From the NCBI GenBank assembly GCA_000004985.1, contig GG738893.1: 64,000 nt of DNA. One strand, given 5' to 3'. The notes below the pieces were generated by a model. That model did no database searches and had not been told where the DNA came from. It worked only from the letters and a program-made list of their open reading frames with translations. The position numbers were made by a program, and so were the translations under genes. Shown one piece after another: positions 6,451-61,144 of the stretch. Origin of the DNA: Naegleria gruberi. Its lineage: Eukaryota. Within the stretch, counting starts at the first letter, position 1. Each line of letters begins with the position of its first letter.

Positions 6451-6500
6451 NNNNNNNNNNNNNNNNNNNNNNNNNNNNNNNNNNNNNNNNNNNNNNNNNN
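6451..6500. other. assembly gap (50 N)
   Basis: A run of N characters. Confidence 0.95.
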
Positions 6501-11401: not shown

Positions 11402-13632
11402 TCAATAATTAAATATCAATGAAATGCAAATAGTGAGAAGGAGTGTTACAATTAATGAACAGTCCAATTTAAAAGATGATGAAACTCTTGTGGAATTTCT
11501 AGCAGAAACAGTTGGCTGAATGGCAGAGTTGGAGGCAGTTGGTACAACTACATTGGATGGAGTATATTTCAATAAACCAATGTCATTGAATGGAATTTTG
11601 GTAAAGTATTCATTCTCGTATGGGTTTCCTTCAATGAGTGTGAAATTTAAGGCACTTGGGTTGGCAAACCATTTCATTGGAACATTCATGGTATTGTTGG
11701 AGACAGTTGACTTGGCATAAACCATTGATGCAATATTCAATGAAGTTGTTCCACTCATTAAATTGAAAACTACCTTATTTCCTTTTGGAGCATGAGGGTC
11801 ATCATTGAGAATATTAACAAGAGATGGATAGGCAGAAGCCCAAGGCTCGGTTTGATAAGGCATATTTTGGAGATTCTTCATGAGTTGTACTGAATTATTT
11901 GGTGCATTATATCCTCTGTTATCAACATGAATACTAATGGTATTGTTAATGAAAATATTGTTTCTTACACCATTATCTCTACCACCACCAACAAGAATAG
12001 CTCTGTAACATTCCAAAAGTACGTTTCCGTAAACATCAGCAGATGAATATTGATCATCAAGGTAAATACATGAAGTACCAAGTTGACCAGGTCCACGAAT
12101 GTGGTGAATGAAATTGTACTTGATGACATTTCCTCTCATAGTCCAATCTCTATTCGAAACATTAGAAATGAATATGAACAACTTTAAACATACCTTCCAC
12201 TATAAATGGCTCCAGCATCTCCTGTTTGAGTGCAAACATTGTAAATTTCATTGTAAGATAATTCATGGTTATTACCACTGTGCAAGATGGCTACATGCGA
12301 AGCTGTATGCAATACATTGTGCATTACCTTAACACCACATCCACTCAATGAAACTGCGCCTCTATAGGTCTTACCAATTCTTGAAAAATTGAAAATAGTA
12401 TTGTTCATTACAATGAGATCAGTATTGGTGAGTGTAATTCTTGAACCACCAGAAACTGAAACACCTCCTTGACCCAATTCATACATGGTATTGCTTGTAA
12501 CCTTACAACCAGTCAAACAATTACCAATAGCAAGGCCAACATTACCAGTATTGGAGATAGTACAACTATTCACAATCAAATAATTATAATTTGATGCCTT
12601 GATTGCGGTTCCTCTACACATTCCCAAATTGAGATTATGGAATTGATGAGCATGGGCATTGACTGTGAAAATCTGATCAGTTACTGAAAGAACCAAATCA
12701 TCATCATTTTCCAGAGGTCCAGGTGGATACAAATAAACCATGTCATCTAAAATAATGTATTCTCCAGCTTGATCGAGCTCACTCAAGAAATTCAATAAGA
12801 AAAATCTTTGACCACCCACAATACCATAAGTAATTGAGGATTGTTTTAAAGTGACAACACCTTCTGGAGTGACACTTTGTAAATCTTCAGTGCCATCTGC
12901 CCAATCGTATGCCCAATATCCAAAACCGAAAGGATACTTTTCATTTGGCCATCTATTTCTATTGGTTGCATTAGTAGCATCGAATGTGAAATTATTGACA
13001 CCTGGCTTGGCTCCAATCTTTAAGAAATTATCATCGAGTGTATCAGGAGAAATATTTGGATAACGAGCCAACGTCAAAACCTTTCCTCTATAGAAAAGTT
13101 CATTTTGTGAATCAGTTGAACCAATATATTGACCATTTCTTTTGAGTTTTGAAATTTGAGTTTGTGAAAAACCGACAGCTGTCAAATTCAATTGCAAAAC
13201 CTTTCCTTGTGAGCTTGTTGGAATCATATTAAAGGCCCAATTATTATTCTGAGATGTTACAACTGACCACAAGCTAGCTGGGAGTGGAACACCACCAACC
13301 ACTTTGACACTCTTGCCAGAATTTAAAGGTTTCCAAATGACAGGTGAAGTATTATCATTATACTTGCTAGGACTAGCTAAGGTAATTGATGAATTAATGA
13401 AATAGGACCCTTCTTCAATTAAAATGTTATAGGTTTGATTGGTGAGAGCTGAATTCTTCATGGACACAACTGTGGCTGCTGCTTTAGACAAAGTTTTGAA
13501 TGGAGAGTTGGTTGAGTTACCAAAGTTTGTATCGAGACCTTGACTGTCCGAAACGTAGATGTTAACTTGGCCTTTTAACACAGATAGAATGGTTAGCAAC
13601 AAAACGAAACAAACTAGTGTTGAATATTTCAT
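11402..13632 (-). CDS. secreted right-handed parallel beta-helix (pectin-lyase-fold-like) protein; two exons: complement(join(11402..12149, 12194..13632))
   Basis: Signal peptide MKYSTLVCFVLLLTILSVLKG. Many NxS/T sequons. The repeated G/N/S/T-rich rungs (NTGNVGLAIGNCLTGCKVTSNTMYELGQGGVSVSGGSRITLTNTDLIVMNNTIFN ...) are typical of beta-helix repeats. The C-terminus is hydrophobic (LIVTLLLTICISLIFNY). A 44-nt GTATGT..TAG intron rejoins the two ORFs in frame (…AIYSGR|DWTMRGNV…). Confidence 0.6.
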
Positions 13633-13991: not shown

Positions 13992-15701
13992 ATGCTCAAT
14001 TTTATCAGTTACGAAGATGAGAATGATCAACATGATCGATATTTTCGTTCCGTAGCCAAATTTCTCTTCACTCCAATTATTCTATGGTCCACTTTGAGTG
14101 CTCTGTTCGGATTGATGGGTCTGATCATTTATGCAATTTTTGTATCCTATGATGGAGGGCCTGAATACATTACGAATGAATATATTGGGATTTGGATGAG
14201 TGGAGTATTGCTGAGTGTGAGTGGGCAATTAATTTATTTAATTAGTAAGCCACCTGATCGTGATCAGAAGAAGAAATGGTCGGATAGGATATTGTTTGCA
14301 ATGAATGGATTGTATTTTGGTTTAATGTTGGTGATGAGTTTAGTGATCATGATTGGATATTCAATGTATGGATTGAGAGTGGATTTGATTGTGTGTTCAG
14401 TGTTGATTTTCTCTATTGGATTGTTGAGCTTTGTAGTTGTGATATTGAGATGGTTTGCCAGAGGAATGGTTCCATGTGATTGTTGTTATGAAATGGAAGA
14501 CGATGATGATAACGTTAGTGCATCACATCCTCTAATGTTTTCTTTCAAAATGTCAGTGAATAGAGAAAAACCGAAAAAGAGAAATAATTCATGCTTGTTG
14601 AATTGTGTGAAATATACATGTTTATTTGGAGTGAATTCTGTGTTGAGGACTGTATCAATTGTGATTTTATTACTTCTCGCTTTTGGAGCTGTCAATTTGG
14701 CAAATATTGTGAATATTTCAAAGAGAGGAAGAATGGTAAAGGTAAAATTGAATGATGGGTCTGAAAGAGTCCAGAAAATTCATTTGATTTGTGACGGACC
14801 TAAAGAATCAAATCAAAGTTCCACTTTTATATTCGAGAGTGATTTTTCACACAATTATGCAGATTTTTCAGATATCCAAACTTACATGACTCAACTTGGA
14901 AGAAGATCATGTATTTTTGATAAACCTGGGCTTGGATTCTCAGATTACCTATTCAAAGATCAAAAGAATGTCTCTACCTTTTATCATAACTTTATGCAGT
15001 CAATAGGAGAACAGCCACCATACATTTTTGTTGGATGGGGAGGAGGTGGTTCAATAATTTATCAATATGCCAGAGATCACCCTGAGATGGTAAAGTCTTT
15101 GACCTTCTTGGATGTTTTTCCAGATGGAATAGAATTTACTTCAGCCAAAATATTGAAGAAACTAACAGAATCAGAATATGAAGCATTTAAAAAGAGTGAA
15201 TTGAATTCTAGAAGGAGTATTATGAATATTGTGAATGCTATTGGAGTACCATTAGGAATTATGCCTTTCATTATCGGTCCAAATTCAAATACAAGCAATT
15301 CAAATGAAATTGCATTCTGGATGAGAACCGAAAAAACATGGATCACTCAATCAGTGTTTCTTGATGAAATGATTAATAATCAAAATTATACAGATTCTGT
15401 TTTTAACCTCAATCTCCCTCAAAATATTCCCATCAACCTGGTCATTTCAAAACACAATGATAGCTGGGTTGAGCAAAACAATTACCAGTGCAAATCTTTT
15501 GGAATAGATTCAAAAGAATGCAAATATCAGGTGGAATTGAACAAATTTTATGTGGAATCACAGTTGAACATTGTTCCCTCACTTAATGGAGGATCTGTGA
15601 CATTTTGCACAGACAATGACTGTTCTCAATCATATTATACTTTCATCAATCCAAAGTACACGGCAGAGACATTGAATAGAATTTATAAGAAGGATATTTA
15701 G
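13992..15701 (+). CDS. polytopic membrane protein with a C-terminal alpha/beta-hydrolase-like domain (nucleophile elbow reads GWGGGGS)
   Basis: 569-aa ORF. Four N-terminal hydrophobic helices, then a region resembling the alpha/beta-hydrolase core (PGLGFSDY ... IFVGWGGGGSIIYQYARDHPEMVKSLTFLDVF). Confidence 0.5.
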   Translation: MLNFISYEDENDQHDRYFRSVAKFLFTPIILWSTLSALFGLMGLIIYAIFVSYDGGPEYITNEYIGIWMSGVLLSVSGQLIYLISKPPDRDQKKKWSDRILFAMNGLYFGLMLVMSLVIMIGYSMYGLRVDLIVCSVLIFSIGLLSFVVVILRWFARGMVPCDCCYEMEDDDDNVSASHPLMFSFKMSVNREKPKKRNNSCLLNCVKYTCLFGVNSVLRTVSIVILLLLAFGAVNLANIVNISKRGRMVKVKLNDGSERVQKIHLICDGPKESNQSSTFIFESDFSHNYADFSDIQTYMTQLGRRSCIFDKPGLGFSDYLFKDQKNVSTFYHNFMQSIGEQPPYIFVGWGGGGSIIYQYARDHPEMVKSLTFLDVFPDGIEFTSAKILKKLTESEYEAFKKSELNSRRSIMNIVNAIGVPLGIMPFIIGPNSNTSNSNEIAFWMRTEKTWITQSVFLDEMINNQNYTDSVFNLNLPQNIPINLVISKHNDSWVEQNNYQCKSFGIDSKECKYQVELNKFYVESQLNIVPSLNGGSVTFCTDNDCSQSYYTFINPKYTAETLNRIYKKDI

Positions 15702-17812
15702 TAATAGCGAACTGGTTGGTTTTTGATATTTTCAAGGTAAGGAGAAATCTCAGGTACATCATTTACCAACCTGACACAATTTTCTTTTGAGAAGAACCTT
15801 GAAGCTCCATACAAACGCTCAATAAGTTTTGGACGTTTAGCCAGTAAAAGCTTTCCAAAGTAATAGTCATGTTTAGCCAAAAAACCAACAAAATAATAAA
15901 TTGGTGAGCTGACCAATAGTTTTGGATTTTTCAGCATGACTTCGTAACACAATTCATCATCAATTTCTTCAGTATCAAAACAGAAGTGAGATACTTTGAG
16001 AAGTAACGCTTTTCTCACATCAGGATCACTAACATAAGGTAGATTAGTTCGAGCCATTCTTTCTAAGGTGGTTGGGTCTCCTAATTTTACAATATCAAGT
16101 ATTTGATCTCTTGTAATGAAGTGTTCAATTGGGTAGTGATTGTTGAAATATTTCGTAATTGGAACGATGATTTTTGGGAATTCGTACATAACACTATCCT
16201 TTAAATTAATTAGAGTTCCATCCTCATTGACATTGAAATATAATCTATTCAAAAAGTTTTTCAAATTTTCCGATCCAACTTGTTTAGCAATATATATCTT
16301 CGCTTCTGTGAAACACTTGTCCAAAATTTTAAGATAGTTTTCATCAGTTTTGCCCAGCACTTCTAAATTATTGGGATACCTCAATGCAATATCTATTAAA
16401 TCCTTTTCCTTTTTCATATCATCTGATAGGAAAGGAAAATAAGAAGGCTGAATAGCCAAAAGTTTCTTTACAATCTTCTTATTTGATAGAACTTCTGATA
16501 GAAATGCATCTGCTTGAGAAGGATCAATGGCTTTTTCTCTAATGGAACCATCCATTATTTTCTTGGCAAGTCCAGGATATACACCTCTCTTCTTCAGATG
16601 GTTCCTGAAAAAATTGAAGTGTTTTGGTGTATATGGTTGGTCTAATATAGTGTCCATATAGAAACTATCTGACGACAAGCAAACAGGTACCAAATCATTT
16701 AGAGTAAAAGTACCCTTTCCAATAAAAGGAAATTTTTCAATCTGCTTTGTAAATAGCTCAGGATAATCATCTCTTTCAAATATAGAAAGCAAGTCATAAT
16801 CAATATTTTCAGAAATAACCAAACCACTCATTAAAGAAAACGCTCCATAATAATCTTTTCTTTTGAAAAACATCAGCTGAATACATTCCATCTCAAGATG
16901 ATGGCCAGTTACAAGAGTGTGATATCCCATTAAATTTGGCTTTTTTCTTACAAAGTAATCCAAAAGCTCAGCTCTTTCATAGCAGCTGTGTGCTGTTGGT
17001 ATCCAAGCCAAGGGATTTCTCGGATAGTGACGGTAATAATTATCAAAGAGAGCTGATTTGGGAGGTTTCAGAACTATCGAACAAACTTTCTTCTTTGTTT
17101 CTAAATCCAATCTTTCGAATGGAATTTTCAAAGCAACCTGAGGACATTTCCTAACAGCAGTCAATACAATGTCTGGATCCACTTTGAGTCTCTCTGAAAT
17201 ATGTGTATAGCAATAAGGACTACGTTTGGACATTCTCATGGCATTCATTATGAACTCTTTGTCATTCAATAATCGCTTAGGTATATTATTTAAATCTTGT
17301 AACCCCTTTTCCACAAAATCATTCACCAACATTCTCAAAAACAATTCTCCACTCAAATAATCACAATCTTCAATATAAATAAACATTCCACAGATATATA
17401 ATCCCTTCTTGAAAATGAGTAGCATGTATTCATTAATCATCATGTCTACACATAGAGAACTTCCTATTAATCTGTCAGATATCAACCCAGCTACTGAATG
17501 ACATTCCTTTGCAGCCACTCTCTTGTCAAATAAATTCGGATAATCAATTGCTAATTTCTTGAAAAACAAATATCTCTTATCAAAGGACAATATCTCAACA
17601 AATGCAAAACACACCCTCGAAAATCTATTAAATTCCAACAAGGAAAGATAATTTAATATGATTAGCCATGAATCTTCGGAAAGGTGCCAATCTTTGTAGT
17701 ACTTGATCGATCGGGTGTATTCTCTTTGTTCATCCTCGAGCCTTCTCATCTCTTCCATATTTTCAGAATAGTCGAAATTGAACCCGAAATCTTCATATTC
17801 TTCTTCTGCCAT
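15698..17812 (-). CDS. F-box domain protein (true ATG at 17810..17812; the track's start at 17863 is GTG)
   Basis: MAEEEYEDF ... WLIILNYLSLLEFNRFSRVC (F-box-like), followed by a long uncharacterised region. Its stop codon overlaps the stop of the convergent upstream gene (TTAG at 15698..15701). Confidence 0.5.
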   Translation of the reverse strand: MAEEEYEDFGFNFDYSENMEEMRRLEDEQREYTRSIKYYKDWHLSEDSWLIILNYLSLLEFNRFSRVCFAFVEILSFDKRYLFFKKLAIDYPNLFDKRVAAKECHSVAGLISDRLIGSSLCVDMMINEYMLLIFKKGLYICGMFIYIEDCDYLSGELFLRMLVNDFVEKGLQDLNNIPKRLLNDKEFIMNAMRMSKRSPYCYTHISERLKVDPDIVLTAVRKCPQVALKIPFERLDLETKKKVCSIVLKPPKSALFDNYYRHYPRNPLAWIPTAHSCYERAELLDYFVRKKPNLMGYHTLVTGHHLEMECIQLMFFKRKDYYGAFSLMSGLVISENIDYDLLSIFERDDYPELFTKQIEKFPFIGKGTFTLNDLVPVCLSSDSFYMDTILDQPYTPKHFNFFRNHLKKRGVYPGLAKKIMDGSIREKAIDPSQADAFLSEVLSNKKIVKKLLAIQPSYFPFLSDDMKKEKDLIDIALRYPNNLEVLGKTDENYLKILDKCFTEAKIYIAKQVGSENLKNFLNRLYFNVNEDGTLINLKDSVMYEFPKIIVPITKYFNNHYPIEHFITRDQILDIVKLGDPTTLERMARTNLPYVSDPDVRKALLLKVSHFCFDTEEIDDELCYEVMLKNPKLLVSSPIYYFVGFLAKHDYYFGKLLLAKRPKLIERLYGASRFFSKENCVRLVNDVPEISPYLENIKNQPVRYY

Positions 17813-17886
17813 TTTTTTTGGTTTACTTTGTAGACAACAATTCACATTTACAATTGAGTTCACAGAATGTTCAACAAATCAGAACA

Positions 17887-18863
17887 TTAATGTGTTACAG
17901 TGAATTGGTGCAATCCATGACCTTCATCCAGTTTAGTTACATTGAATTGATGATAACAAGTGTCACCCCCTTCTCGAACAAACCTTTTGTAATTTGAAAG
18001 GGTTAGTACTTCATTGGTTATATATGGTGCATTCAAGGTAACTCCACAAATACTACAAATCATTTCTACAAGCAATGCTTCTATTGTAAACTGAATTTCT
18101 GGATCTTCCAGTCCCAAAACAAATTCAACATCCAAGAAAATATATGGTATAATGGAAAGGAAATCAGCAAATCTGTAACTAACACTGGCCTTTTCACTAT
18201 GGTGTTCAATTAAAACTCTGAAAAATTGATTTCCATTGACTGAAATTGAAAAATAGGAATCTGTAAAGCCATAATATGTATCTTGATCAATTTCATCTTT
18301 GAATTCAATTCTCAAAGGATATCCATAATCTGTAAAAATTGTAAAGTTTTTCTTAGATTTACCATTTTCTGATTCAACAGAATGAACAAACACATCGTGA
18401 TTCAATGTATAAGCATCTGCATAAAGACTCCATTTAGAATAATTTTCTAGAGTCTTTTCTCGTACTTTTTCCAATGCCAATCCAATATTACACAAATGAG
18501 AGACTTTTCTCAATCCCAGTTCTTTAATTATTAGTGGTGATGCTATTAATTTATAGAAATTATCTCTCTCGTACAATGACAAATACACAAATACTTGAAA
18601 ACATCCCAATGAGATTTAAACTGATTATTACTTTGATCATTCTTGGCATGTTCAATGCACAAATCATGACACTTTCCAATGATTTTGGTAAAACGGAAAT
18701 ATGTTTGCAAATAATGGTGAGCAAATTGATCATCATTTTGAATGGCATTGTACATTTTCTTAGATGAGAGACGCAAAGACAACACTTCCGATGGGCATGA
18801 GTAGAAGAGAATTAAATTAATTTCATCGAGGCAAAGATTGGCCAGGATTGAAACTTTGGACAT
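17887..18863 (-). CDS. F-box domain protein, probably two exons: complement(join(17887..18542, 18587..18863))
   Basis: The N-terminus carries an F-box (LDEINLILFYSCPSEVLSLRLSSKKMYNAIQND). The two overlapping ORFs in different frames are reconciled by a 44-nt GTATTT..TAG intron (18543..18586), the same size as other introns here. Confidence 0.45.
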
Positions 18864-19016
18864 TTTTTTAAAAGATTGGAAACACTTGCATTGTAAAGAA
18901 TGAAAGCTAAATATTATTGAAAAACAACTAAAAGGAAATCGCCCACCGTGGGGGTCGAACCCACGACCACAAGGTTAAGAGCCTTGCGCTCTACCGACTG
19001 AGCTAGACGGGCTATT
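18775..19016. repeat. tandem duplication unit A (5' end of F-box gene + spacer + tRNA-Lys), abutting an N-gap
   Basis: Nearly identical to 19067..19277 apart from two small indels (10 nt and about 21 nt) and a few substitutions. Confidence 0.7.
18940..19012 (-). tRNA. tRNA-Lys (anticodon CTT)
   Basis: The reverse complement GCCCGTCTAGCTCAGTCGGTAGAGCGCAAGGCTCTTAACCTTGTGGTCGTGGGTTCGACCCCCACGGTGGGCG folds into a canonical cloverleaf. The anticodon loop is CTCTTAA, the T-loop is GGTTCGA, and there is no encoded CCA. It closely resembles eukaryotic tRNA-Lys-CTT. Confidence 0.85.
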
Positions 19017-19066
19017 NNNNNNNNNNNNNNNNNNNNNNNNNNNNNNNNNNNNNNNNNNNNNNNNNN
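19017..19066. other. assembly gap (50 N)
   Basis: A run of N characters between the two duplication units. Confidence 0.95.
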
Positions 19067-19277
19067 CAAGACAACACTTCCGATGGGCATGAGTAGAAGA
19101 GAATTAAATTAATTTCATCGAGGCAAAGATTGGCCAGGGTTGAAACTTTGGACATTTTTTTAAAAGATTGCATTGTAAAGAATGAACGCTAAAAGGAAAT
19201 CGCCCACCGTCGTGGTCGAACCCACGACCACAAGGTTAAGAGCCTTGCTCTCTACCGACTGAGCTAGACGGGCTATG
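19067..19277. repeat. tandem duplication unit B (includes a 93-nt copy of the F-box gene 5' CDS and a second tRNA-Lys-like copy)
   Basis: 19067..19160 repeats 18770..18863, the first 31 codons of the F-box gene. The rest repeats the spacer and the tRNA. Confidence 0.7.
19201..19273 (-). pseudogene. tRNA-Lys(CTT)-like second copy with stem-disrupting substitutions (probable pseudogene or mis-assembled copy)
   Basis: The anticodon arm is the same, but D-stem position 25 is C->A, and the 3' T-stem reads ACGAC instead of CCCAC, breaking two pairs. Confidence 0.5.
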
Positions 19278-20720: not shown

Positions 20721-21845
20721 ATGGAAGAACATCAATCTCTTGTAATTGACAATGGTTCTGGAATGTGTAAAGCTGGTTTCGCTGGCGAAGATGCTCCACG
20801 TGCTGTTTTTCCTTCATTGATTGGTAGACCAAAACAAAGGTCAATTATGGTTGGAATGGGAAATAAGGATGCCTATGTTGGAGATGAAGCCATGTCAAAG
20901 AAGGGAATCCTCGCTCTCAAATATCCAATTGAGCACGGAATTATCACTAACTGGGATGATATGGAAAAGATTTGGCATCATACTTTCTATAATGAATTGA
21001 GAGTTGGTCCTGAAGAGCATGGTGTCTTATTAACTGAAGCTCCATTGAATCCAAAGGCAAATCGTGAAAAGATGACACAAATCATGTTCGAAACCTTTAG
21101 AGTTCCAGCCATGTATGTGGCCATTCAAGCTGTCTTGTCCTTGTATGCTTCTGGTAGAACTACAGGTATTGTTTTGGATTCAGGTGATGGTGTTTCACAT
21201 ACTGTTCCTATCTATGAGGGTTATGCTTTACCACATGCCATTTTAAGATTGGATTTGGCTGGTCGTGATTTAACTGACTACTTGATGAAGATCTTGATGG
21301 AACGTGGATACAGTTTCAACACCAGTGCTGAACGTGAAATTGTCAGAGATATTAAGGAAAAGCTTTGTTATGTTGCCTTTGACTTTGAAACTGAAATTAA
21401 GAAAGCATCTTAAAGTTCATCCATTGATACTTCATATGAATTACCAGATGGTAATATTATCACAGTTGGAAATGAACGATTCAGATGTCCAGAAGTGTTA
21501 TTCCAACCTAATTTCATTGGAATGGAAGCTGCTGGTGTACACGAAACAACTTTCAATTCTATTGGAAAGTGTGATATTGACATTAGAAAGGATTTATATG
21601 CCAATGTTGTACTTTCAGGTGGTACAACCATGTTTGAAGGAATTGCTGAGAGAATGAACAAGGAATTGACAGCTATGGCTCCAGCCTCAATGAAGATTCG
21701 TGTTGTTGCTCCACCAGAAAGAAAGTATTCAGTTTGGATTGGTGGTAGTATTCTCTCTTCATTATCAACCTTTCAATCTATGTGGATCACAGCAGAGGAG
21801 TATGAAGATGCTGGATGTGCCATCGTTCATAGAAAGTGTTTCTAA
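20721..21845 (+). CDS. actin (conventional, about 88% identical to animal actin), with one in-frame TAA at 21411..21413
   Basis: [37 protein letters not shown] ... IVHRKCF is collinear with actin over 375 codons in a single frame. Codon 231 is TAA, where yeast actin has Gln (EMQTAAQSSS) and this gene reads EIKKAS*SSS. It ends with a normal TAA. Confidence 0.8.
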
Positions 21846-21967
21846 ACCAAGTTGACCCAAATCTATCATATATATTGTAAATAATCAAATTAAATTATCC
21901 TTATTATCCTTAACAATAGCCAGTCCAAATGAACATTTAACAATAAATTAGAGCATTAAGGTAAAAA

Positions 21968-22085
21968 GACTACAGCACCACAGGTTCCCAAGTTGTCTCC
22001 AACCTCAGTACTGATGTGGCTCGACGATGCTTAACTTCTCAAATCGGACGGGATGAGGTGCATTCATCGTGATATGGCCGTAGCC
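21968..22085 (-). rRNA. 5S ribosomal RNA, solitary copy
   Basis: The reverse complement GGCTACGGCCATATCACGATGAATGCACCTCATCCCGTCCGATTTGAGAAGTTAAGCATCGTCGAGCCACATCAGTACTGAGGTTGGAGACAACTTGGGAACCTGTGGTGCTGTAGTC matches eukaryotic 5S landmarks (GGCCATA, internal box A GTTAAGC, AGTACT, GGGAAC, GTGCTGTAG). It is followed on the minus strand by TTTTT (21961..21967), a pol III terminator. Confidence 0.8.
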
Positions 22086-33000: not shown

Positions 33001-34065
33001 TTAATGTTTCCAACCATTTGAATGACCTTGTTCTCTGTAAGGTTCTAAAAATCCTCTAAATATCACTTGATTTGAATTGGTGGTATCTTGATCAGATTTG
33101 ATAGAATTATTTCCCCTTTTATACACCCATCTAGATCCATATCCTTCAAAATTTCTCACTTCAACACAAGGAACATTATGAGGAAGAATGTGTGCATTAA
33201 TAAATGTTGCCTCATTTACAATCTTTTCTAAAATTGCAAGAGATTTTCTATTCTTTTCCTTGGCATTTCCAGTTAAGACAGTAGAACCTCCCCAAAATTG
33301 ATCAGTTTCACTTCTGTGACAATGCTTAGCAAGAGCTCTGGCTCCAACTGTGAGACCACTTGTCTTTTCCAAAACTTCATTAAATGAATCAATTAATTCC
33401 TTATAGGTTGGTATCATGTATGAAATACTGCCTGTTGTTTTCCTCATCCTTAGACAGGTTTGAAATCCTCTTAATTTCATTTCCAGAATAATTTGTTGAA
33501 CATGTTCATCCAAGACTGTTTCCTCAGTACTGAAATCCGTAGAGTTCAATTTCAGAATTCTATCTGTAAATTTTGAACTGAGCTCTGTGTAATATTCAAA
33601 ATCATCTTCAATGCTTGGAAATTGTTGGAATTGAATTGGGAATTTTCCTTCTCTACCCCATAATATCCAAATGAAAGCAATCTATCTCAATAATCGAATT
33701 AGAAATAAAATCAAAATATTTACCTCTTGGAAAATATTTGAAACATTCAATGTTGGATAACCAATTAATATTTTCTCTCCATTCTCCAAATTATGATATT
33801 TTACAAGATTTAATAAATTAGCATCATCATTAATATTTTCCTCCTGATCGGAATTTACAAAATTCAATCCAAGGGCTTCCTTCAAGTACTCAGCAGAGAC
33901 TGCAATCGGAGTGGGATCTTTAAATTCCTGTTGCTCATCTGATCCTAAATCATTATTCAACTGAGGGGAATGACAAATCCATTCACTAAATAAATTGCTA
34001 TCATTTAATATGAAGGAAATTGATTTCCGAATACAATTTGATAAATTACAAATATTTGGCAACAT
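33001..34065 (-). CDS. hypothetical protein; two exons: complement(join(33001..33681, 33724..34065))
   Basis: A 42-nt GTAAAT..TAG intron joins the two minus-strand ORFs in frame (…NIFQE|IAFIWILWGREGKFP…). Its stop codon directly abuts the Nudix stop codon (TAATTA at 32998..33003). Confidence 0.45.
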
Positions 34066-58317: not shown

Positions 58318-61144
58318 TTAATTAGTATATTCAAGTAAAGTATTAAAAACCCATCTAATAATTGTGTTTTTAATTATTACACTTTCGACTCCCAATGGTT
58401 GCGAGAGAGCATGTTTAATCTTTGCTTCTTTATCACCATTAAAACTAATTAGTGCGTCAATAATATTTTCAAAATCACTTCCATAAATTTCAACAATCAC
58501 AAGCCTGTTTTCGGATATTCCAATACACTCTTTCAATAAAACATGTATTTCGTCTTCTTTCCAACATTTTGGAGTTAATTTATCGAGAACAACATTACCA
58601 ATTATTATCCTTCCTGAAGCTCTCTGTAATGCTGGAATATTTAAAACACTAGTAGAATATTGTGAAACAGTGTGCATTTGAGAGGATCCAATATTTGCAA
58701 TATTTGATGATATATCTGAAAAAGGAGTATGTGAATATTCTAAAGTTTGTGGGGATGAATTATTTTGAAAGAATCCAGACTGAAAACAAATCATTTCTCT
58801 ATACAAATCTTTCTTTTTCGTACAGTAATTATGAAATAGAGAATACAATTCATTGCTTAATAAATTCTGCAAGCCCTTCTTAGACAGTAATAATACTTGA
58901 AAACCTCCTTTCTTCAATTGTAACCAAGACTCTGTTCCAACCCTTGACTTTGTGTAGCTTAATTTTCCATCGTCCTGTAAATAGCATGTTTCTGTTATTA
59001 GAAGTGATCCAGAATTATCAGCATTATTTTCAATGACTCTCTGCAATTCGTCTGAAAATCCCAGAACTACCATTATTAATAAAAAGTGTAAATTATCTCC
59101 CTGTAATGATGGTTTTTCATCACAGCTATAGGTATTGGGTAGGAAATTTACCGCTTGATCGATTTCCTTTTGTAAAAGATCCTTAGTAAAATTCTTTTCA
59201 AACAATTCCACATCAAACAATAATAATTTTCTTAATAATTGAGATGAAGTTTTGTTCAAAGTTATTAATATATCAAATCCAGTATTTGTTTCTCCACCAG
59301 GAATAGCAGCACAAAATTGATTTCCACTCATAGCGTCATCTAACACTGAAATAAATGATGTATAACTAGTTTTTAGGTACTTTCCAAATCCCATCGTTTG
59401 GTAGTCGAACTTCTCAGTCGTACTTGTTGGTGAAAATCCAGGAATTAACTTATTATGTGTTTCAAAATTGGAAGGTAATTCTAAATTACTAAAAAAGGTA
59501 TCTTTGAATATGCCACCACATAAATCCCCAAATAGAATAACTTCTCTTGTTTTTGTAAATGAGATAACTAACATTTCAGCCAATAGATCAATGACCGATA
59601 ATTCCAATGCCTTGGGAGCTTTGAGAACATTGTTATTGTTTTGCAATAATTGGTAACGAATTCCACTGATAGGTGCTTTAAATTGTGCCAAGTTCTTTAA
59701 AATACTATCTTTCATTAGCTTGGGAATGATAATCTTGATGACATTATCTTCCAAAACTTGAAAATGGAGTTTCAAATAAGGAATTATTTCAATCAAGTTT
59801 CTCCAACTCCTGTTAAAGTATATTTTCTAAAACTATTATTAAATCCATAACTAATATACTCACTGTTTGTAAGGGTATTGCAACATCAAAGGAATGGATA
59901 AAATATAATTGAGCCACTAAATTGGCTTCTTCTCTAGTCTTGATATTGATGGTTATATCACTTTGTTTTTGATCAGAATTTACAACAGCTTTACAAATTT
60001 TCTCTCTTGATGATAAATCATTCAAGTTGTACAATATGCTTTTGAATGCATTTTCCATTATTCTAGGAACAGTACCTGTATAATCCACAAGAATATCTAT
60101 AAATTCCTCAATATCATTTAATCCTAACAACTTGAAAGCATCTAATAGTGAAATTTTGCATTCCCCTTTTTGCACAACACTTTGTTCAAGCAATATTTGA
60201 ATAACTTCTTTTGTCATTGAGGACAAAAAGACAAGACAGTAATCAGAAGGTAAACTTCCTTTGAATATTTGATTATTTTCTTGCAAAGCCAAATGTACTG
60301 GAATATGTCCACTAAATATAACAGTACTCCTAATGGGAGTAATAAGGTGAGTAACATCTGACCATAATTCTTGAAACCGACTCAAATACAGATCATCACA
60401 ACCTATCTTACATGTGTTCCATTTAGAATCTTTCAATTGTCCTTCAAAATCATTCAACAAAATTGCATCTACTTCATCAATAAATACTAAATATCCTTCA
60501 GGTAAGGATTCATCACTATTTAAAGCTTGAAATATTTGGCTTGCTGAATAATGCTCTTGATTTGTAATATTCTTCAATTTTTGGTGAAATCTTCGTCGTT
60601 GTTTTAAAAGTTCTGGTGGTGTGTTTTCTATTGCTTTTTGAATTAATTGGCATTCATAGGACCAAACCACAAAATCAGCAATTTTTTGGCTCATACTTTC
60701 AATAGTTTGCCCTGAATAAAGAACTATGGGAAAATATCTAAAATCCAATTCAAATAACTGTAAGTCTCTAATCCATTTGTACTCCTCTTTCCATACGCCA
60801 TATTTGAATTCATATACCTCTCTGAACCTTCTTACCAAACTCGTTTTACCAATTCCAAAAGTTTGAAATAGGGACACTAATTTACTATTGCTCAGAGACG
60901 AATGCTTATTGGAAGCTAAGGTATTAACGATTCGTTCAGCTTCTTTTTCACGATTTACAAATTTTAAACGTAACGTTGCGGTTGTGAGGTCTTTTGTTGC
61001 TATGCTCGTACCAATTTTGTTTGCACTATTCGTTGGCGAAGTAGGTTTGGAATTGGAAGAATTGTTGGATGTGGTGGCTTCTTGCTTGTTCTTTTTGTTG
61101 AGCATTTCGTGCTCTGCAAGTTTATCCAGTTTTCGTTTATGCAT
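58318..61144 (-). CDS. large P-loop NTPase-domain protein (about 930 aa in total), reading frame interrupted near 59797..59815
   Basis: The N-terminal half has Walker A (FGIGKTSL) and Walker B (LVFIDEVDAIL). The two long minus-strand ORFs (59813..61144 and 58318..59796) are separated only by a TAA in one frame. The second frame is already open from 59817, so the two overlap within an A/T-rich run. No GT..AG intron of suitable length or phase is available. Confidence 0.45.

Follow-up and report, generated by a model that had tools for sequence, protein, structure and literature searches.

The window, a 64-kb stretch of the Naegleria gruberi NEG-M genome with a G+C content of 33.4%, contains a conventional actin gene on its plus strand whose open reading frame (ORF) is divided by one in-frame stop codon. 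The gene and its parts are as follows:

20721..21845, plus strand: conventional actin gene of N. gruberi NEG-M, intronless, public model NAEGRDRAFT_83258, with 374 sense codons and one internal TAA
20721..21410, plus strand: 5′ part of the actin ORF, 230 codons, with its ATG at 20721
21411..21413, plus strand: internal stop TAA at codon 231, which aligns with residue 232 in the 375-residue chain of mammalian beta-actin
21414..21842, plus strand: 3′ part of the ORF after the stop, 143 sense codons in unchanged frame, open and actin-like
21843..21845, plus strand: terminal TAA of the actin ORF

A tblastn search of the 64-kb window recovered this one actin, collinear across residues 1–374, and no second copy within the window. 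The encoded protein is similar to conventional actins over its full length (Pfam PF00022), with 374 residues aligning end to end and no gap against beta-actin residues 195–286. The translated ORF matches N. gruberi NAEGRDRAFT_48298 with 98% identity from end to end, and the best match of the 143 post-stop codons in a homology search was the partial actin NAEGRDRAFT_54894, at 99% identity. Among the animal, plant and protist actins for which an identity was reported, the values were 79–83%. The frame for the whole protein is interrupted by the TAA at codon 231. The first-pass annotation had described an ORF collinear with actin and broken by a single in-frame TAA at this codon, and both the sequence and its translation agree with that description, coordinates included. 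Since a random frame of this base composition stays open for only about 13.5 codons on average, the actin-identical continuation of 143 codons after the TAA is not due to chance. No frameshifts, indels or second stops were found across these 143 codons. The ORF thus combines clear family homology with a disabling lesion, the combination that defines a pseudogene or null allele, and a 230-codon product is the only one expected if the internal TAA is real and obeyed.

Several other features surround the actin gene. At 21967..22085, some 120 nt beyond the actin terminator and on the opposite strand, lies a complete 5S rRNA gene (Rfam RF00001, 105 bits). On the other side, two tRNA-Lys(CTT) genes on the minus strand, at 18940..19012 and 19201..19273, flank a gap of 50 N at 19017..19066. 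Over 73 positions the second tRNA copy has 3 differences, two of them disrupting the T-stem (CCCAC to ACGAC), and its score is 41 bits compared with 66 bits for the other; this copy may be a tRNA pseudogene in decay or reflect poor sequence near the contig end. Further upstream, a 721-aa ORF on the minus strand (15698..17863) contains DUF4116 (Pfam PF13475, E = 4.7e-16), a repeat domain with no known function.

When the actin ORF was compared with the public record, NAEGRDRAFT_83258 (XP_002673048.1, EFC40304.1, UniProt D2VS98), located on a 337,165-bp scaffold, proved to be a protein of only 347 aa. Removing 81 nt from the ORF yields this protein exactly, and a brute-force test showed that no other removal does so. 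A literature search on the gene number NAEGRDRAFT_83258 found nothing relevant. The segment is:

21367..21447, plus strand: segment spliced out by the public model, 81 nt, GTTATG...TACCAG, 27 codons including the TAA

Because the public model skips exactly the 27 codons that bear the stop, the deposited assembly must hold the same disruption. The segment begins with GT and ends with AG, yet no fewer than 34 frame-preserving GT..AG pairs surround the TAA and could delete it, and 21367..21447 is the shortest among them. This is the pair that a homology-guided gene modeller would pick in stepping over the TAA. By alignment to solved actins, the segment encodes residues 216–242 of the window actin, which correspond to 217–243 of the 375-residue beta-actin, a region known from actin structure to belong to subdomain 4.

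To judge whether the segment looks like an intron, three introns of the same window serve as references:

about 12140..12190, minus strand: short canonical intron, GTATGT...TTCTAAT...AATAG, joining adjacent ORFs in different frames (ORF pair at 12184)
33640..33684, minus strand: short intron, GTAAAT...TTCTAAT...GATAG
about 59800..59850, minus strand: short canonical intron, GTGAGT...CTTTAACAG, joining adjacent ORFs in different frames (ORF pair at 59813)

The donor of the actin segment, GTTATG, differs from all three donors (GTATGT, GTGAGT and GTAAAT): it lacks the purine at +3 and the T at +6 that are present in 3 of 3 window introns, and the G at +5 found in 2 of 3. All three introns also carry TTCTAAT or CTTTAAC before their AG. 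The segment has not evolved as non-coding DNA either. At the protein level 25 of its 27 codons are identical to those of the paralog NAEGRDRAFT_54894, the exceptions being the stop itself and a Met-to-Ile change, which indicates that 21367..21447 evolved as coding sequence. Judged from these sequence features, the segment is almost certainly an annotation artefact and no genuine intron, and D2VS98 / XP_002673048.1 very probably represents no real actin isoform.

The same introns account for other apparent interruptions in the window. A second interrupted gene was considered at 33001..34065 (minus strand), where a TAG at 33682..33684 separates ORFs of 127 and 226 aa, but this TAG sits in a typical intron. 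The apparent disruptions at 12184, 33682 and 59813 are all normal introns, and the pair of ORFs at 17887 represents two separate genes. The other apparent disruptions in the window thus do not suggest that errors or pseudogenes are frequent.

Given the intact frame downstream of the stop, one possibility is that the TAA is real but bypassed, either by programmed UAA readthrough or by true splicing of the 81-nt segment as an in-frame "exitron", so that a protein is still made. The perfect preservation of the 143 downstream codons speaks for it, as do three features of 21367..21447: GT..AG ends, a length that is a multiple of three, and CATTGAT, a generic branch-like motif some 20 nt upstream of the AG. 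Such a bypass, if true, would amount to a regulated or recoded actin isoform in a heterolobosean. Most of what is seen at the stop points the other way. UAA followed by A is the least leaky stop context. The internal stop has exactly this context (TCT TAA A), which is shared with the gene's own terminator and with most true terminators of the window: 27 window ORFs of at least 250 codons end with TAA in 21 cases, TGA in 4 and TAG in 2, and the base at +4 is A in 19 of the 27. Genuine terminators of the window thus use UAA-A more than any other context, and the internal stop is not of a leaky type. Over the 120 nt that begin with the internal TAA, the predicted fold has a minimum free energy of −24.2 kcal/mol (z = −1.06), and 31 of 200 shuffled sequences fold as well; no significant stimulatory RNA structure was found in this stretch. 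Neither is the stop conserved as readthrough would lead one to expect, since a stop or gap at column 231 was found in 0 of 37 related actins.

The splicing form of the bypass fares no better, with a donor unlike those of the window introns, 34 GT..AG pairs that would be equally usable, and a segment that evolves as coding DNA and shares 25 of 27 residues with its paralog. Loss of the 27 conserved residues 216–242 in subdomain 4 should also wreck the fold. We consider a bypass of either kind improbable. That a protein is in fact still expressed across a real TAA, by low-level readthrough or as an actin lacking 27 residues of subdomain 4, is rated marginally lower again. The first-pass annotation had listed three options (a recent pseudogene, readthrough and a base-call error); the list itself was right, and readthrough is the one disfavoured by the TAA-A context, the fold z-score of −1.06 and the sense codons of the paralogs.

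A variant genetic code in which TAA is read as sense would be another way to keep the gene intact, and it finds nothing in its favour beyond the single actin codon. TAA terminates 21 of the 27 ORFs of at least 250 codons, and ORFs of 1377 codons (WDR11-like) and 1049 codons (EFL1-like) have full-length Pfam architectures and contain no internal stops, neither TAA nor TAG. Altogether about 14,400 codons of long window ORFs are uninterrupted, so that TAA is not found frequently inside genes here, and where it occurs it terminates. The only other same-frame stop between substantial ORFs of the window, the TAG at 33682, is the AG end of an ordinary intron. No suppressor tRNA was found in the window, where the two tRNA-Lys(CTT) are the sole tRNAs. 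A variant code is excluded within the window and, as a general explanation, is hardly credible; the earlier judgement that a global reassignment is unlikely, made from uninterrupted long ORFs and from gene ends at TAA, TAG or TGA, was well founded.

To trace the origin of the stop, codon 231 was compared among 37 close actins, in which the column holds 28 Glu, 5 Asp and 4 Gln. All members of the subfamily to which the window actin belongs have Asp here, namely N. gruberi 48298, 54894 and EFC39380, N. fowleri FDP41_007473 and an N. lovaniensis fragment. For two relatives the DNA could be read: the codon is GAA in N. gruberi actin 55094 and GAT in the N. fowleri gene. The simplest and most likely origin of the stop would be a single G-to-T change at 21411 that turned GAA (Glu) into TAA, with the ancestral codon deduced from this comparison; starting from GAT (Asp, the residue of the closest paralogs), it would take two substitutions. 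Gln had been noted at this position in several actins, which holds for 4 of the 37, although the closest paralogs have Asp and the majority Glu. The suggested repair by a CAA-to-TAA transition, or by reading TAA as Gln, is accordingly possible but not favoured, the nearest Naegleria paralogs having Asp (GAT) or Glu (GAA). The N. fowleri gene FDP41_007473 was also considered as a positional orthologue and rejected, its neighbours having no match in the window.

The age of the lesion was then approached through selection on both sides of it. Upstream of the TAA, dN/dS is 0.054–0.067 in comparison with two Naegleria actins, and downstream it is 0.045–0.067 and thus no higher, with all these comparisons saturated at synonymous sites (dS about 1.1–1.7). 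With dN/dS low on both sides and no further lesions, the stop either arose very recently or is not real. A rough estimate puts the neutral divergence accumulated since it arose below about 3.5%, if about one in five neutral changes is disabling and no second lesion has arisen in 429 nt. The window actin departs just once, as a singleton, from the otherwise invariant actin columns (Met226Ile, codon ATT), and it also has Lys327Arg, where the Arg codon CGT is three base changes away from a Lys codon. These differences from the nearest relatives, Ile226 and Arg327 (CGT), mark a distinct locus and not a collapsed repeat, and suggest from sequence comparison that this copy had been a separate, selected lineage for some time. 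We also considered the window copy as an allele of 54894, which lies on a 4,096-bp scaffold; this is unlikely given the three base changes between the Arg327 codon CGT and a Lys codon.

A stop that is not real would be a base-call or consensus error in the 2010 Sanger draft. The true codon would then be GAA or another sense codon, the gene would encode an intact and functional actin of 374 aa, and both the stop and the 81-nt intron would be artefacts. Changing one base is enough to give a perfect actin again, and N. gruberi actin 55094 has GAA at this codon. The gene is otherwise pristine, with dN/dS of 0.05–0.07 on both sides and no indels, a pattern that counts against a real lesion insofar as one wrong base in the consensus would explain it equally well. 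The quality of the sequence nearby cannot be taken for granted, with the 50-N assembly gap lying 2.3 kb upstream of the internal TAA; the scaffold has gaps at 6451..6500 and 19017..19066, and the tRNA-Lys copy with stem-breaking changes, 135–207 nt from the second of these, may itself reflect poor sequence. No second assembly was found for comparison with NEG-M, and a pangenome study of 2023 (PMC9928731) lists no other N. gruberi genome.

Three points weigh against an error. The TAA lies 2.3 kb inside the contig and not at its end; substitution errors that create stops are rare in an assembled Sanger consensus (by our estimate, tens per genome); and, with Asp in the closest paralogs, two wrong bases would be required. 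Independent copies of the site were sought as well, and finding none counts against a real lesion. An exact look-up in sequence collections returned no exact record of the 230-aa product or of a product from a post-stop ATG, and none of a neighbouring gene, the public 83258 protein or the closest paralogs; a homology search of a protein collection returned no fragment 100% identical to the 143 post-stop residues, and a scan of metagenome DNA gave no match to the 32-nt site around codon 231 with that codon left free. On balance, we regard an error as a real but minority possibility, with a chance of perhaps one in four.

The explanation that we favour, with a probability of roughly 0.6, is that a real nonsense mutation has recently turned a weakly codon-biased and probably minor actin paralog into a pseudogene or null allele. 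We infer that the T at 21411 is present in the organism and that the window copy is nonfunctional. In the sequence of events that we propose, a very recent nonsense substitution would have hit one probably minor member of the actin family in NEG-M, the likely change being a transversion of G to T at 21411 that made GAA (Glu) into TAA. Translation would then end with residue 230, and the resulting fragment, without most of subdomain 4 and without the C-terminal parts of subdomains 3 and 1, would be predicted not to fold as actin. With 30 or more actin genes in the genome, such a loss would be tolerated. The copy would then be either a newborn pseudogene or a null allele at a heterozygous locus that was picked by the assembler.

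Evidence on the family is consistent with this proposal. At least eight N. gruberi actins with 88% identity or more to the window actin were found among the protein search matches, and at least 30 actins, or 78 actins plus Arps, have been reported for N. gruberi (bioRxiv 10.1101/2020.05.12.091538). The window actin has an effective number of codons (ENC) of 36.0, within the range of 35–38 of the neighbouring genes, compared with 27.4 for actin 55094, and this ordinary codon bias suggests a minor paralog. Only actin 55094 was recovered from the public run SRR3922091. The contig concerned, a Logan contig of 1207 nt from that run with a poly-A-rich 5′ end and an ENC of 27.4, encodes NAEGRDRAFT_55094 actin exactly. 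NEG-M is reported to be heterozygous and diploid (PMC9928731), which makes a null allele plausible, and the stop may sit on one haplotype only.

Signs of decay elsewhere in the same subfamily were also observed. The sister paralog EFC39380, which lies outside the window and is labelled "conventional actin", carries 14 singleton replacements at otherwise invariant columns, including Tyr to Asp, Arg to Cys and Gly to Arg. Despite its label, EFC39380 looks from these replacements like a gene that is decaying or strongly diverging, and such changes indicate that decay or drift occurs in the subfamily of the window actin.

If the favoured reading is right, the biology is that of ordinary birth-and-death turnover in a large actin family, with no evidence for recoding or a variant code. 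The main value of the locus lies in curation, in that a public protein has been built on an invented intron, and this can be checked. D2VS98 / XP_002673048.1 should be marked as low-quality sequence, a null allele or a pseudogene. Its error carries over into the figure of "30 or more actins" for Naegleria and into any analysis of isoforms or toxin resistance that uses the entry.

Among known systems, the public model NAEGRDRAFT_83258 describes the same locus and differs in calling 21367..21447 an intron, where we read coding sequence with a premature stop. Among genes, N. gruberi 48298 (XP_002678295.1) and 54894 share 98% and 99% identity with the window actin, a common subfamily signature and the same length; both have Asp231, Met226 and Lys327, whereas the window actin has TAA, Ile and Arg (CGT) at these positions. 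Genes with programmed readthrough resemble the window actin in having an in-frame stop followed by a long conserved open frame, but the window actin differs from them in its strongest terminator context, in the lack of a stimulatory structure and in a stop that is not conserved in relatives.

Our literature search found no description of actin pseudogenes in Naegleria. Large actin families are known from Dictyostelium, for which a passage of bioRxiv 10.1101/2020.05.12.091538 gives 41 actins and Arps, 17 of them encoding an identical protein, and a passage of a pseudogene review (PMC9274356) places its actin genes among the early recognised gene multiplications. The window actin resembles the young, unprocessed pseudogenes of such families, in which one near-identical member carries a disabling point lesion and the remainder stays intact; what sets it apart from them is that it bears a single lesion and shows as yet no measurable relaxation of selection.
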